A stretch of 64,000 nt of DNA from Cytophagales bacterium (GTDB taxonomy: Bacteria > Bacteroidota > Bacteroidia > Cytophagales > UBA9547), in the NCBI GenBank assembly GCA_013297755.1, contig JAAFIH010000026.1, forward strand, positions 281-64,280, in the 5' to 3' direction. The notes under the pieces are model-generated. The model worked only from the letters and a program-made list of their open reading frames with translations. It was not told the DNA's origin and did no database searches. A program made the position numbers and the translations under genes. Each line of letters opens with the position of its first letter. Position 1 is the first letter of the stretch. Positions 5,655 to 59,228 of this stretch are shown here, piece by piece.

Positions 5655-6105
5655 TAGTCAGAAGTTCCACTTTTCAAAAAAGTGGAACTTCTTTGTTTGC
5701 AAAGATACCATCGCTCCAAGCGATGGTATCTTTATCATAAAATTCATGCGTTAGCAAAAGCCCCCTTCGGGGGTTTGGGGGCTTTCTAGCTCTGGGGTTT
5801 TGGGGCTTCTTTGTTTACAAAGATACCATCGCTCCAAGCGATGGTATCTTAATCATAAAATTCATGCGTTAGCAAAAGCCCCCTTCGGGGGTTTGGGGGC
5901 TTTCTAGCTCTGGGGTTTGGGGGCTTTCCCAGAAGTTCCACTTTTCAAAAAAGTGGAACTTCTTTGTTTGCAAAGATACCATCGCTCCAAGCGATGGTGT
6001 ATCTTTATCATAAAATTCATGCGTTAGCAAAAGCCCCCTTCGGGGTTCTGTGCATCGAACAGAAGTACTTTCAGGGGGCTTTCTAGCTCGGGGGTTTGGG
6101 GGCAT
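5655..6105 (+). repeat. Modular hairpin-repeat array C
   Basis: H1 at 5660-5692 and 5931-5963. H2 at 5703-5731, 5821-5849 and 5974-6004 (the last with a 2-nt insertion). Several cccc-ttcg-gggg and gggtttggggg modules are present. Orientation matches arrays A and B. Confidence 0.9.
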
Positions 6106-9821: not shown

Positions 9822-9895
9822 GGTTCGGTAGTTCAGTTGGTTAGAATACATGCCTGTCACGCATGGGGTCGCGGGTTCGAGTCCCGTCCGAACCG
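9822..9895 (+). tRNA. tRNA-Asp (anticodon GTC)
   Basis: Cloverleaf read by eye: acceptor ggttcgg/ccgaacc, anticodon stem catgc/gcatg with loop ctGTCac, T-arm gcggg-ttcgagt-cccgt, discriminator g. No encoded CCA. Confidence 0.9.
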
Positions 9896-16444: not shown

Positions 16445-17464
16445 TTATGATACAGTATTGGTTTTATTTTTTAAAATATCAATGGCTGTATAGACTGCTG
16501 CTCTAAACGAATGTTCGTTGGCCAAGTTTTTTCCTGCAATATCATAGGCAGTTCCATGATCTGGAGAGGTGCGAATGGCTTTTAATCCAGCTGTATAATT
16601 TACCCCATCTTCAAAAGCCAACATCTTGAAGGGAATCAATCCCTGGTCGTGGTACATGGCCAATACTGCATCAAACGATGTATAAGTTTTGGCAGCAAAA
16701 AAACCATCTGCTGGGTAAGGTCCAAATACTAAATTGCCTTTATTTTTATGTTCCTCTATCAATGGTTTAATGATTTCTATGTCTTCTTTTCCAATTAATC
16801 CAGCATCTCCAGCATGTGGATTGAGGCCTAAAATTGCGATTTTGGGTTTTGTTATTCCAAAATCTTTTTTTAAAGATTGCAACATGATTTGCAAACGTGC
16901 TTCAATTTTTTCTTTTGTAATATCTTTTCTTACATCTTGTAGTGGCACGTGCATAGATACAACCGCAATTTTTAGATTTTCGCTTACCATAAACATCAGA
17001 ACCTCTGGAGCGGCAAATGCAGATTGCAAATATTCTGTATGTCCTACAAAATTAAAATCCACATTTTGGATATTTTTTTTATTAATAGGAGCCGTAACCA
17101 TAGCATCGATAAAACCATTTTTTAGATCTTCGGTACATTTTTGTAAAGATAAAAAAGCACATTTACCAGCAGTTTCGGTAACCAAACCAGGTTCTAGGTT
17201 GTAGTCTTCAGTCCAACAGTCAAGTATATTTATTTTTTTTTGCTGTGCATCTCCTATTTCATTGATACTGACAAAACCTATATCTTCAGACATGATGCAC
17301 AGTTTTCGGTATTTTTTCAACAACGATGTTGAAGCATATATCACAGGTGTAAAAAATTTCAAAATCTCACCATCGTTGATAGTTTTGAGGATAACTTCTG
17401 GACCTATGCCATTATAATCGCCTAGTGTAATTCCAATGATAGGTTTGTGTTGCTTTGATTCCAT
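16445..17464 (-). CDS. pdxA: 4-hydroxythreonine-4-phosphate dehydrogenase
   Basis: GITLGDYNGIGPEV, GHTEYL, LNPHAGD and SPDHGTAYDIAGKNLAN motifs. Confidence 0.9.
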   Translation of the reverse strand: MESKQHKPIIGITLGDYNGIGPEVILKTINDGEILKFFTPVIYASTSLLKKYRKLCIMSEDIGFVSINEIGDAQQKKINILDCWTEDYNLEPGLVTETAGKCAFLSLQKCTEDLKNGFIDAMVTAPINKKNIQNVDFNFVGHTEYLQSAFAAPEVLMFMVSENLKIAVVSMHVPLQDVRKDITKEKIEARLQIMLQSLKKDFGITKPKIAILGLNPHAGDAGLIGKEDIEIIKPLIEEHKNKGNLVFGPYPADGFFAAKTYTSFDAVLAMYHDQGLIPFKMLAFEDGVNYTAGLKAIRTSPDHGTAYDIAGKNLANEHSFRAAVYTAIDILKNKTNTVS

Positions 17465-17539
17465 GTTTTAAATAATTATTACAAATTACGTATAAATATT
17501 TTTATTATTGACTAAATTTAATTTAGATTTAAAAAATAT

Positions 17540-17616
17540 AATAATCAATAATCAATAATCAATAATCAATAATCAATAATCAATAATCAATAATCAATAA
17601 TCAATAATCAATAATC
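17540..17616 (+). repeat. Heptanucleotide microsatellite (AATAATC) x11, ending exactly at the ATG of the next gene
   Basis: Eleven perfect units counted from 17540. The ATG is at 17617. Confidence 0.95.
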
Positions 17617-17964
17617 ATGCATCTAGATCAACTTCGAGAATATTGTTTAGCAAAACCTCACACCACTGAATCATTGCCTTTTGATAACAAGACTTTGGTT
17701 TTCAAAGTCCTGTCCAAAATATTTGTTATTACAGATATAGAGTCTGAGATTTTAACTTTTGCTGCCAAATGTGATCCAGAAAAAGCCATAGAATTACGCC
17801 AACAATATGATTGGGTGCAACCTGGCTACCATCTTAGCAAAAAACATTGGAATACTTTAACCTATAATGGCACCAACTCCAAAATACTAAAAGATCTCAT
17901 CGACCATTCTTACCAACAAGTTTTGGCATCCATGACAAAAAAAGAAAAACTATTGATGCAATAA
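17617..17964 (+). CDS. MmcQ/YjbR-family DNA-binding protein
   Basis: LREYCLAKPHTTESLPFDNKTLVFKV...HWNTL pattern typical of YjbR; 115 aa. Confidence 0.75.
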   Translation: MHLDQLREYCLAKPHTTESLPFDNKTLVFKVLSKIFVITDIESEILTFAAKCDPEKAIELRQQYDWVQPGYHLSKKHWNTLTYNGTNSKILKDLIDHSYQQVLASMTKKEKLLMQ

Positions 17965-18011
17965 TTAATTTCAACTAACGATAATACAAATTTTTAAAAA
18001 GTAATTTACAC

Positions 18012-18045
18012 AAAAAAACCGTTCAAATATTTGAACGGTTTTTTT
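18012..18045. terminator. Bidirectional intrinsic terminator between yjbR-like gene and porin
   Basis: aaaaaaa-ccgttcaaa-tat-ttgaacgg-ttttttt. Confidence 0.8.
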
Positions 18046-18050
18046 GTGTA

Positions 18051-18085
18051 ATCAATAATCAATAATCAATAATCAATAATCAATT
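18051..18085 (+). repeat. Heptanucleotide microsatellite (AATCAAT = rotated AATAATC) x5, overlapping the porin stop codon
   Basis: Five perfect units from 18051, with the same unit and strand as 17540-17616. Confidence 0.9.
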
Positions 18086-19301
18086 AATATTTGTAAATGA
18101 AAGCCATACCAATAGTAGTTTGGTGATCAATTCCTTTACCAGTATTATCTTTATACTGACCTCTACCTGGAGCAGCATCTACTCTAAATTCTGGTTTCAA
18201 GATTACGTGTCCATCTGACAATGTAATGGGTAATGTAACAGTAAGGGCATTATTAATAGTACCAATTAAATTATTTCTAGCTCCACTTTTGTTGTTAAAA
18301 TGCTCATATCTTACACCTATTCCTAAGAAATCTGTAATTTTATAATTTGCATAAAAGGCAGCTCCACCCCAGTCGTGTTTCTTTTTGAAAATTGTGCCAT
18401 TTCCGCCTGTTGGGTTTAACACATCTTGTTCGTAATTAATCATACCATAAGCAGCATTTAAGCCTATATATAATTTGTCGGTAGCTTGTAAACCAATGTT
18501 AAGATCAAATAAGTTTCTAGTATAAGGTACAACAGTAACTGGTGAAATAGCATTTAAATTTGTACTATTAAATCCAGACAAACCCTGTCCATCATTAGAT
18601 GGTTTACCTGTAGATGATGATGCAATTCTTGCTTGATCATCTCCATATCCACCAATCCAGTTCAAATACATACCAAATTTAGAAGAAGGATTGATAGCGA
18701 TTACACCTATCAAAGATTTTTGAGTTTTGTAATCTACTAAGTTATCCCAGTTGTTTACAACACCACCAGTTATTCTTAACCAATCAGTAGCTATAAACTG
18801 AATTTTTGCTCCAATATGGTAGAAAGGACCATTATTAAACAAATTTGAAAGCGAATAATTGTAGTTATTTGGAGCATCTACACCTTCATATCCAATATGT
18901 GTAGCAAATTGACCTACTGTAAAGTTCAATTTTTTAGACAAATTGTATTTAAAGTAAGCTTGCTTGATTGCAACTGAATTACCACCAATTCCAAAGTCTA
19001 AATTTCCAAAGTTTGCAAGTCTGGCATAAGGACCAAAAACTAAATCCATTACCAATTCAGAATTTCTGTTAGTATAAGCAAATCTAGTTTGTACCAAACC
19101 TAAAGCAAATTGATTGTTTTTAACATCAAAAGGTCTGTTTTGTAATTCAGTAACAGCACTTTCATTTTGAAATTTGTAATTGTAATAAGAATCAATATAA
19201 CCGTTGAGGGTAAATTTGCCTGCGGTTTTGGTTGAGTCTTGTGCAAAAGCTAAGCCAGAAGCTAATAATCCAGCAGCTAATGAGTAAATTGTCTTTTTCA
19301 T
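18084..19301 (-). CDS. Outer-membrane beta-barrel porin
   Basis: Signal peptide MKKTIYSLAAGLLASGLAFAQ, alternating amphipathic strands, and an aromatic C-terminus ...GMAFIYKY. Confidence 0.7.
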   Translation of the reverse strand: MKKTIYSLAAGLLASGLAFAQDSTKTAGKFTLNGYIDSYYNYKFQNESAVTELQNRPFDVKNNQFALGLVQTRFAYTNRNSELVMDLVFGPYARLANFGNLDFGIGGNSVAIKQAYFKYNLSKKLNFTVGQFATHIGYEGVDAPNNYNYSLSNLFNNGPFYHIGAKIQFIATDWLRITGGVVNNWDNLVDYKTQKSLIGVIAINPSSKFGMYLNWIGGYGDDQARIASSSTGKPSNDGQGLSGFNSTNLNAISPVTVVPYTRNLFDLNIGLQATDKLYIGLNAAYGMINYEQDVLNPTGGNGTIFKKKHDWGGAAFYANYKITDFLGIGVRYEHFNNKSGARNNLIGTINNALTVTLPITLSDGHVILKPEFRVDAAPGRGQYKDNTGKGIDHQTTIGMAFIYKY

Positions 19302-22894: not shown

Positions 22895-23040
22895 TTAATG
22901 GTTAGTGGTTAGTGGTTAATTGTTAATGGTTAATTGTTAATTGTTAATTGTTAATTGTTAATTGTTAATTGTTAATTGTTAATGGTTAATTGTTAATGGT
23001 TAATTGTTAAAGGTTATAACTTATAACTTATAACTTATTG
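22895..23040 (+). repeat. Degenerate heptanucleotide array of about 21 units (TTAATGG/TTAGTGG/TTAATTG, ending in TTATAAC x3)
   Basis: Period-7 register is maintained from 22895 to about 23040, between the divergent rnz and response-regulator genes. Confidence 0.9.
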
Positions 23041-32677: not shown

Positions 32678-32710
32678 AAAATATTTTGAAAATATTTTGA
32701 AAATATTTTG
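32678..32710 (+). repeat. Three perfect tandem 11-bp repeats (aaaatattttg) upstream of the Abi promoter
   Basis: Units at 32678-32688, 32689-32699 and 32700-32710. Confidence 0.9.
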
Positions 32711-43802: not shown

Positions 43803-44285
43803 TTAAATTCCAAATTGATGCAATAATTCAGGTGTTAAAGGTTTTCCACTTGATACTTCTTTGAAAATGCGTTCATACAACGATATTTTTTCTTGTTGCG
43901 ATTTTAATGTTATCACAATTTGGCTTTGCTCTTCGTTCACTTTTGCTACATAAGTGCGTCTGTCCCATAGTATAAGACCAAAAATAGATATAAATCCTGC
44001 AAGTACACTTGTAGATAAAATTAGAATCATGGTTGTTGAGGTCGTTTTGAAATCATCAATTTGTTTTCTAGTATCATCAATTTGTTTTCTAGTGTCATCA
44101 ATTTGTAATCTTATTTCATTTATTTGAGTTTGCATCATTTCAAATTTCTCGTCAGATCGCTTAAAACCCTCTTGCATTTGAACTTGAATACGAATAATAT
44201 TTTCTCTATCTGCCTGAGTAAAGCCGTTTTGAGCCAAGGTTGATATCGAAAAAATACAAATAAATGTACAAATTACATTTTTCAT
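43803..44285 (-). CDS. Signal-peptide / coiled-coil / TM protein with an in-frame QIDDTRK tandem repeat
   Basis: ATG at 44285 gives MKNVICTFICIFSISTLAQ. A 21-bp repeat lies at about 44040-44105. The TM helix is MILILSTSVLAGFISIFGLIL. Confidence 0.6.
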   Translation of the reverse strand: MKNVICTFICIFSISTLAQNGFTQADRENIIRIQVQMQEGFKRSDEKFEMMQTQINEIRLQIDDTRKQIDDTRKQIDDFKTTSTTMILILSTSVLAGFISIFGLILWDRRTYVAKVNEEQSQIVITLKSQQEKISLYERIFKEVSSGKPLTPELLHQFGI

Positions 44286-58226: not shown

Positions 58227-58406
58227 TTTTTTAAATAATTTTGTAAGATTTTATTTTAATTTTATCAATTTGTTTAAAATATATAAACTCTAGATTTCAA
58301 TTTCAATTATTTTTTTGAATGTAAAGATTAATCCTTATAGAATATATAGTACAAGTCCTAAAAAAGGGGGCTTAGATAACGAAATCTATAGTTTTAGAAA
58401 AATTAA

Positions 58407-58445
58407 AACTTATAACTTATAACTTATAACTAATAACTCATAATG
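58407..58445 (+). repeat. Heptanucleotide microsatellite (AACTTAT x3 plus 2-3 degenerate units)
   Basis: aacttat aacttat aacttat aactaat aactcat. This is the same unit (a rotation of TTATAAC) and strand as the tail of the 22895-23040 array. Confidence 0.85.
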
Positions 58446-58451
58446 ATTCTC

Positions 58452-59228
58452 CTAATCTTCAAAAATATTACCTAATCCACCAAGAATACTTCCCCCTTCT
58501 CGGCCACTATTGCCACCACTTGGCGACAGTACAGAAACTAATTTTGATATAGGCATAGACTGAAGCCAAACTTTGCCAGTGCCTCTGAGAGTAGCCAAAA
58601 ACAAGCCCTCTCCACCAAAAACCATCGATTTGAGGTTACCTGCTTTTTGTATATCAAAATCTATTTGTGGTTCAAATGCTACAACACAACCAGTGTCTAC
58701 TCTTAGGGTTTCGTTGTTGAGTTGTCGTTCTATGATAGTGCCGCCTGCATGAATAAAAGCCATGCCATCGCCTTCTAGTTTTTCGAGGATAAAACCCTCG
58801 CCACCAAAAAAACCTGCACCCATTTTTTTATTAAACGTGATAGATATTTTTGTACCATAAGCAGCACACAAAAAAGCATCTTTTTGGCAAATAATAGTGC
58901 CACCAAGTTTTTGAAGATTCAATGGAATAATTGTGCCTGGGTATGGAGCCGAAAAAGCAACATGTTTTTTACCATACCCTTTGTTTGTGAAATGGGTCAT
59001 AAACAACGATTCGCCTGTGAGCATCCGAGATCCTGCTGTCATCAATTTGCCAAAAAAACCTTGATTTGGGTTGCTGCCATCGCCCATTTTGGCTTCAAAA
59101 TCGATGTTTTCTTCCATATAACACATAGCACCAGCTTCGGCCACTATAGTTTCGTGTGGGTCGAGTTCTATTTCTACTAGCTGTATGCCTTCTCCAATTA
59201 TTTTGTAATCAACTTCGTGTGATTTCAT
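58452..59228 (-). CDS. AIM24/TIGR00266-family protein
   Basis: [20 protein letters not shown]...[11 protein letters not shown]...[14 protein letters not shown]...[20 protein letters not shown]. Confidence 0.8.

Follow-up and report, generated by a model that had tools for sequence, protein, structure and literature searches.

Heptamer repeats are over-represented in bacteria, a finding that is credited to a 2007 survey in PMC4692102, and heptamer arrays vary in length between related strains (PMC4692102). Heptameric simple sequence repeats (SSRs) in intergenic regions include the short tandemly repeated repetitive (STRR) heptamers of Cyanobacteria, the GGGAATC repeats of Xanthomonas, and the GGGGA(C/T)T repeats of Nostoc. 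Here, two arrays of the heptamer AATAATC are examined that lie on either side of a yjbR-like gene in a 64,000-nucleotide stretch of DNA (hereafter the window; positions 281 to 64,280 of contig JAAFIH010000026.1, assembly GCA_013297755.1) from a Cytophagales bacterium. The host is an uncultured member of the Bacteroidota with a GC content of 32%; among named relatives, none has a PdxA more than 66% identical to that of the host, and the nearest of them by this measure is a Cytophagales metagenome-assembled genome (MAG). The reading favoured here, with moderate confidence, is that each of the two arrays belongs locally and independently to the heptameric intergenic SSR class, that they are not the ends of an excisable cassette, and that the upstream array is probably the leader of yjbR.

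Several described systems are close enough to this locus to warrant direct comparison. First, marine Beggiatoaceae, Cyanobacteria, and some Bacteroidetes have direct repeats of TAACTGA that stand a few nucleotides before start codons and point forward (MacGregor 2015, PMC4679880). The start codons concerned lack Shine-Dalgarno sites, the repeats are sometimes found in reverse orientation right after stop codons, close strains differ by insertions or deletions in 7-nt steps, and relatives are known that have the same gene neighbourhood but no repeats (PMC4679880). The window resembles this system in that its upstream array is sense-oriented, abuts an ATG, and belongs to a genome whose genes lack Shine-Dalgarno sites. 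It differs in that no rotation or complement of AATAATC equals TAACTGA and in that only one of the five heptamer arrays in the window abuts a start codon. Second, the closest experimentally studied analogue is provided by hmw1A of Haemophilus influenzae, where a heptamer repeat lies between promoter and start codon, as the array here probably does, and is transcribed in the 5' untranslated region (UTR). For hmw1A and hmw2A, an (ATCTTTC)n repeat in the 5' UTR forms a long hairpin with a G-rich arm and is processed by RNase III (PMC12721329). As in that case, the copy number of the array in the window could in principle grade expression. Unlike that case, the leader here is unstructured, no G-rich partner and no hairpin of this kind were found, and the gene does not encode an adhesin. 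Third, translation initiation in Bacteroidia is free of Shine-Dalgarno sites and is tuned by mRNA structure and by an A at position -3 (PMC6847099). The array shares with the A/U-rich leaders of Bacteroidia that have such "Kozak-like" initiation a G-free, A-rich, unstructured, and AUG-free sequence with A at -3 (PMC6847099). It departs from them in that the whole yjbR leader is a microsatellite and not unique sequence.

As the original prediction stated, the upstream array runs without interruption into the ATG of yjbR (a 115-aa open reading frame, ORF) at 17617, the A of which is its last base, and fills about half of the spacer that separates yjbR from the divergent pdxA. Both the sequence and Tandem Repeats Finder (TRF) give 11.1 copies, and the array accounts for 77 bp (51%) of the 152-bp spacer (17465-17616). 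The unique sequence to its left (flank at 17539) ends ...AAAAAATAT. The 14-mer AATAATCAATAATC occurs 13 times where 0.23 occurrences are expected, a count that none of 100 shuffles reached. Read directly, AATAATC contains stop codons in all six frames, which is why its arrays lie only outside genes and why the longer ones are non-coding; its A-rich strand contains no ATG, GTG, or TTG and therefore offers no rival start codon as RNA.

Both arrays at this locus consist of head-to-tail 7-nt copies (at least three, at high identity) located between ORFs, and period 7 is over-represented across the 64 kb, with several arrays and several units. A census of perfect tandem arrays of at least three copies with periods of 2-12 recovered five arrays of period 7 from the window and, apart from these, a single array of period 11; 100 second-order Markov simulations of the window yielded no period-7 arrays. 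Three unit families are represented. The array at 22895-23038 is compound, with a 14-bp super-period (TTAATGGTTAATTG, 8.7 copies) that passes directly into (TTATAAC)x3.6; since TTATAAC is seen again 35 kb away (58403-58443), units are re-used across the genome. The arrays thus share with the known class the dominance of period 7, perfect or near-perfect tandem organization, intergenic location, many arrays in one genome, several units, and compound arrays. They differ from its described members in that AATAATC is AT-rich and G-free and cannot form G-quadruplexes, in that it occurs in many phyla, and in that the host is an uncultured, Cytophagales-like member of the Bacteroidota. As side observations, a (CATTCTC)x4.6 heptamer lies at 940-971, a few bases past an ATG at 931 and upstream of a longer tandem repeat, and the only notable non-heptamer short tandem arrays found in the window were a perfect 11-bp repeat of three copies (AAAATATTTTG, 32678-32710) and a 21-bp repeat of 2.6 copies with 97% identity (44052-44106).

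The history of the arrays can be read from the closest relative, Logan contig L001, whose YjbR and PdxA are 81% and 82% identical to those of the window and which has the same gene order (sigma factor, pdxA, yjbR, terminator, porin) on one contig. Upstream of yjbR, L001 carries AATAATC AATAATA AATAATC AACAATC AACAATC ATG, that is, five degenerate units that abut the start codon. Since these occupy the same spot, the upstream array predates the split of the two lineages. Pairwise alignment places a single 42-nt excess of the window at this same position, and, as this is exactly six units, a multiple of 7, copy number has changed by whole units during evolution. No array is present in L001 between the terminator and the porin stop codon. 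Judged from this sequence comparison, the upstream array is one that has recently expanded and become homogeneous in the lineage of the window, and the downstream array is lineage-specific. Moreover, because L001 matches the window in gene order but lacks a downstream array, the two arrays neither arose as a pair nor came with the gene.

The downstream array has the same unit and the same strand as the upstream one and occupies the gap that separates a bidirectional terminator from the stop codon of the porin gene. It had been placed at 18051 with five copies, just past the terminator. The unit, the strand, and the copy number (5.1) hold; the true start is 18049 or 18050, so that the first two to three bases of the array are shared with the extended terminator stem (18006-18051). 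The proposed overlap with the porin stop codon (18084-18086, minus strand) exists and amounts to a single base, which is trivial. The sequence on the right of this array (flank at 18085) is TAATATTTGTAAATG. From the description of yjbR as a cassette between direct repeats, only the direct repeats survive: L001 has no downstream array, the flanks of the two arrays are unrelated, and no recombinase is encoded by the neighbouring genes that were scanned. The further claim that recombination between the arrays would delete the cassette precisely is not supported either, as the relatives examined include no empty site and the arrays belong to a genome-wide, cross-phylum class without a link to YjbR.

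It is very improbable that recombination between the arrays excises yjbR and its terminator precisely, or that it brought them in at some earlier time. The arrays offer 36 bp of perfect direct homology at a distance of 431 bp and stand at both ends of the gene, and yjbR is found in different neighbourhoods in more distant lineages, all of which would suit such a cassette. If same-unit arrays are placed at random among the approximately 46 intergenic gaps, the chance that two occupy adjacent gaps is about 0.04, or about 0.02 if the strand must also agree (a post hoc calculation), which also speaks for an excisable unit. Against these points stand the gene order that L001 keeps without a downstream array, the lack of similarity between the sequences that flank the two arrays, and the lack of a recombinase among five scanned neighbouring genes (including those for PdxA, an extracytoplasmic function (ECF) sigma factor, a PMT_2 glycosyltransferase, and the porin). 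Deletion would, in addition, take away the porin terminator, and no YjbR is encoded near AATAATC arrays in at least 117 other loci. No pdxA-array-porin empty site was found among the relatives examined, which share 59-79% identity, differ in gene order, and include few close relatives; at this distance their gene order is too different to speak for or against an empty site. Specifically, pdxA adjoins hemC in relatives with 66-71% PdxA identity, and yjbR lies in other neighbourhoods in relatives with 59-68% YjbR identity.

The half of the divergent spacer that is not repeat (17465-17539, 75 bp) is approximately 88% identical, as counted from the alignment, to positions 3291-3364 of L001, which suggests, at the level of sequence, a constrained divergent promoter or operator region. 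As an aside, the conservation of this segment appears at least equal to that of the adjoining yjbR coding sequence. A Bacteroidetes-type -7 box is present as a perfect match in L001 (TAATTTTG) and with one mismatch in the window (TAATTTAG, 17519-17526), upstream of the array in both, and a scan for sigma-70-type promoters returned no more sites than did shuffled sequences. Because the conserved, promoter-like segment lies upstream of the array, the array is likelier to be 5' UTR than promoter spacer, and from this position it is probably the transcribed 5' leader of the yjbR mRNA. The leader is G-free, 57% A, and lacks start codons, and the junction AATAATC|ATG puts an A at -3. When the leader RNA was folded, the array was wholly unpaired in both the minimum free energy (MFE) and the centroid structure, with an MFE of -2.2 kcal/mol and a z score of +1.3, that is, weaker than shuffled sequences. 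Of 45 genes in the window, a single one is preceded by a core that resembles a Shine-Dalgarno site, and the sequence 5' of the start codons is A-rich and G-poor.

These features bear on the idea that changes in copy number matter for expression. It had been proposed that slipped-strand changes would alter the geometry of the promoter or the 5' UTR. Perfect arrays of the type that slips and the six-unit difference from L001 agree with this as far as the 5' UTR is concerned; promoter geometry becomes the less likely target, given the promoter-like segment upstream of the array. A periodic sequence that ends at the ATG keeps the context from -1 to -21 identical at any copy number, and slippage would thus alter the length of the leader only and preserve both the start context and the promoter spacing. 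Because only leader length changes, an effect on expression would be at most graded and modest, not an on/off switch. A stronger version of the idea is that the upstream array is a contingency locus (phase- or "volume"-variable), in which a selected hypermutable switch tunes yjbR, and perhaps pdxA, by copy number. A perfect 11-copy heptamer with a promoter-like region on one side and an ATG on the other, the whole-unit difference from L001, and the precedent of hmw1A, whose heptamer repeat is transcribed and is able to grade expression (PMC12721329), all fit such a switch. It is nonetheless considered unlikely. The hmw mechanism requires a long 5'-UTR hairpin, formed by the repeats with a G-rich arm and cut by RNase III, and the array here is unpaired; a change in copy number affects neither positions -1 to -21 nor the spacing of the promoter; and the gene encodes a small cytoplasmic protein of the YjbR family, not a surface or host-interaction protein. 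Furthermore, the sister arrays of the window lie after stop codons and in long spacers, and the class as a whole is no rarer at the ends of genes than at their starts, which makes a dedicated switch function for the class unlikely.

To examine the wider distribution of the heptamer, species-representative genomes were scanned for (AATAATC)x3, and at least 117 loci from many phyla were returned. The AATAATC arrays in these loci number 126; their median copy number is 3.9, the longest has 15.9 copies, and four have 11 or more. The same loci contained 59 heptamer arrays of other units (185 period-7 arrays in all), compared with 17 arrays of all other periods together. AATAATC arrays were as frequent at gene ends as at gene starts, and the majority were not near start codons. 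No YjbR homologue was encoded near an AATAATC array in any of the at least 117 loci listed. As a control, a metagenome scan with YjbR yielded 73 YjbR genes from unrelated metagenomic lineages (relatives with at most 56% identity, none of them syntenic), and the 308 kb around these genes contained no heptamer arrays. Binding of YjbR to its own flanking arrays was rejected, as no YjbR accompanies the 126 AATAATC arrays and no arrays accompany the 73 YjbR genes. As an unquantified impression, Saprospiraceae and other Bacteroidota seem enriched among the AATAATC loci. Separately, AATAATC arrays with near-identical flanks were observed inside longer dispersed repeats in a Saprospiraceae MAG (L017; 17-55, 2420-2445, and 2681-2741) and likewise in a Prolixibacteraceae MAG (L056; 3478-3504 and 6699-6725), an example flank being ...AAATAGTAAATATTTCTACA(AATCAAT)n. 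The near-identical flanks imply that heptamer arrays spread within a larger element in some genomes. Such an element was dismissed for the locus studied here, as the flanks of the two arrays are unrelated.

The orientation of AATAATC arrays relative to start and stop codons was counted in the other genomes (L002-L118), with ORFs called mechanically from ATG starts alone and with a minimum length of 120 aa. Of the arrays no more than 20 nt upstream of an ATG, 15 had the A-rich strand as sense and none the T-rich strand; within 20 nt past a stop codon, A-rich-sense and T-rich-sense arrays numbered 11 and 21, respectively. The difference between the two sides has a Fisher p of 1.4e-5, and its direction was the same at other thresholds. 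As at the yjbR start, the ATG directly continues an array in L029, L030, L066, and L077. Both arrays of the window conform, the upstream one being A-rich in the sense of yjbR and the downstream one T-rich in the sense of the porin gene. To the best of the authors' knowledge, no such orientation rule has been published for AATAATC. The rule, A-rich before starts and T-rich past stops, is a small, testable generalization of the report on TAACTGA.

One way to explain the rule is that (AAUAAUC)n serves as a platform to which a protein that recognizes single-stranded RNA binds, be it ribosomal protein S1, one of the cold-shock type, or another, and is selected for as a translational enhancer or regulator, a hypothesis of the kind proposed for the TAACTGA repeats (PMC4679880). 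The strict sense orientation close to ATG (15 versus 0), the repeated array-into-ATG junctions in L029, L030, L066, and L077, the unstructured A/U-rich leader, and a host that does not use Shine-Dalgarno sites are all in its favour. Purifying selection against the other orientation, a U-rich sequence in which G, UGA, and UUG occur, explains the bias equally, and most AATAATC arrays lie away from start codons. In addition, the array of L001 is degenerate (AATAATA and AACAATC units), so that the exact heptamer is not conserved, and the binder is putative. An RNA-level element of this type is therefore regarded as rather improbable. Bolder still would be to regard AATAATC arrays from different phyla as one family of modules that function in 5' leaders and 3' trailers and not as passive products of slippage, an idea to which little credence is given here. 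By the same idea, and with as little confidence, the strict orientation, the ATG junctions in unrelated phyla, and the second array at a distance of one gene would have an active cause, perhaps a dedicated mechanism that generates or copies heptamers, or a conserved factor that binds single-stranded RNA and uses (AAUAAUC)n to drive or regulate Shine-Dalgarno-free initiation.

Since array lengths are central to these arguments, their reliability was considered. The junction between the left flank and the upstream array is reproduced in five independent Logan contigs of the same species (L119-L123; runs in the range SRR9948920-SRR9948934), which encode an identical PdxA, and all five stop 29-30 nt inside the array, as k=31 assembly predicts. 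The copy number of 11 comes from the single assembly of the window, and look-ups with the exact YjbR protein and with its identical database copy (P0001) returned no contigs. A mis-join through shared repeat k-mers could have produced the array lengths or the placement of yjbR, in keeping with short-read graphs that break at arrays and with the 9 of 126 AATAATC arrays elsewhere that reach the end of the stored stretch, several of which are true contig ends. Such an artefact is scarcely credible here, as the left junction recurs in five independent assemblies, L001 shows pdxA, yjbR, and the porin gene in one contig without long arrays, and 77 bp is below both the typical read length and the large k of metagenome assemblers. 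More generally, heptamer arrays fragment k=31 assemblies systematically and are probably under-counted in metagenome-derived genomes.

If the two arrays are indeed independent members of the heptameric SSR class, the following course of events can be proposed. Arrays would originate and lengthen in place via replication slippage and would be kept where their sequence fits the neighbouring transcript. The upstream array, already old, would have grown recently in this lineage and been homogenized to 11 perfect copies. Transcribed as the yjbR leader, a G-free and unstructured sequence with A at -3 would suit the Shine-Dalgarno-free initiation of Bacteroidia, and slippage would shift the length of this leader in 7-nt steps with a graded, modest effect on expression. 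The downstream array would form part of the 3' UTR of the porin mRNA, in U-rich orientation. Deletion between the arrays would then occur only as the ordinary rare accident of direct repeats.

Several points weigh against this account. The scan for -7 boxes found several equally good one-mismatch matches in the AT-rich spacer, and the assignment of the upstream array to the 5' UTR is drawn from sequence. Local seeding or copying between the two sites may have taken place, for which the chance figure of about 2-4% is weak evidence. The perfect homogeneity over 77 bp agrees equally well with a neutral site and with a hypermutable one that is highly active and possibly under selection. Finally, the statement that heptamer arrays are a genome-wide trait rests on 64 kb of the genome.

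The coordinates of the features discussed are collected in Table 1.

Table 1. Features of the yjbR locus and other heptamer arrays in the window (positions are those of the 64,000-nt stretch; a dot marks features without an assigned strand).
Feature	Position	Strand	Basis or remark
pdxA (4-hydroxythreonine-4-phosphate dehydrogenase), divergent from yjbR	16445-17464	-	PdxA, E 8e-108
Non-repeat half of the divergent spacer, probable promoter site of yjbR and pdxA (inferred)	17465-17539	.	About 88% identity to L001; -7-box matches
Upstream heptamer array, (AATAATC)x11.1	17540-17617	+	Sequence and TRF: 100% matches, no indels
yjbR-like gene, 115 aa, MmcQ/YjbR family, predicted DNA-binding	17617-17964	+	Pfam PF04237, E 2.5e-25; homologues; same start codon in L001
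Bidirectional intrinsic terminator hairpin, 20-pair stem, A and T runs on the flanks	18006-18051	.	RNA fold -32.4 kcal/mol, z -7.0
Downstream heptamer array, unit AATAATC, x5.1, perfect	18049-18084	+	Sequence and TRF: 100% matches, no indels
BBP2/OmpL-like beta-barrel porin gene, stop codon touches the downstream array	18084-19301	-	BBP2 porin, E 6e-65
Compound heptamer array, (TTAATTG/TTAATGG)x16.6 then (TTATAAC)x3.6	22895-23038	.	In a 518-bp divergent spacer
Heptamer array, (TTATAAC)x5.9, 91% matches	58403-58443	.	8 nt 3' of the stop codon of minus-strand ORF 58452-59228

On the side of the porin gene, the downstream array would be read in the minus-strand mRNA as (AUUGAUU)n, with the stop codon on one side and the terminator hairpin on the other. 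A scan of the window against Rfam returned nothing at the gathering score other than one tRNA (9822-9895), and only sub-threshold hairpin noise at the terminator.

Longer repeats were also noted elsewhere in the window. A 118-bp element is present in tandem at two places 5 kb apart (3.0 copies at 27-397 and 2.0 copies at 5688-5926) and contains AGATACCATCGCTCCAAGCGATGGTATCT and GCCCCCTTCGGGGGTTTGGGGGC, two palindromes that resemble hairpins and stand out by their high GC content in a genome of 32% GC; from its sequence, it looks like a dispersed repeat of the REP (repetitive extragenic palindromic) or MITE (miniature inverted-repeat transposable element) type. An 81-bp unit at 726-889 (2.0 copies, 95% matches) contains the palindrome CCCTCTCCTTTTGGAGAGGG and constitutes a structured intergenic repeat. 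Additionally, a 147/294-bp tandem repeat with 77-83% identity at 1009-1649 is probably located within a coding region. Its consensus would encode a motif like GDLxGDGxxDLAVAN, which we take to be FG-GAP/VCBS-like.

The idea of a cassette that can be excised is what made this locus look unusual, and it is unsupported. What is left is another case of a bacterial heptamer microsatellite, from a poorly sampled Cytophagales-like lineage, that calls for no new category of system. The value of the locus lies in that the entire 5' leader of yjbR is apparently a perfect heptamer array that runs into the ATG in a host free of Shine-Dalgarno sites, and it thereby offers a clean test, provided by nature, of the influence that the length of a leader and the sequence of its repeat have on Shine-Dalgarno-free initiation. 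For the class as a whole, the questions raised are why period 7 prevails and whether the orientation rule reflects function or mere tolerance. Should AATAATC arrays prove to be functional leader and trailer modules, this would bear on why period 7 dominates the long SSRs of bacteria.

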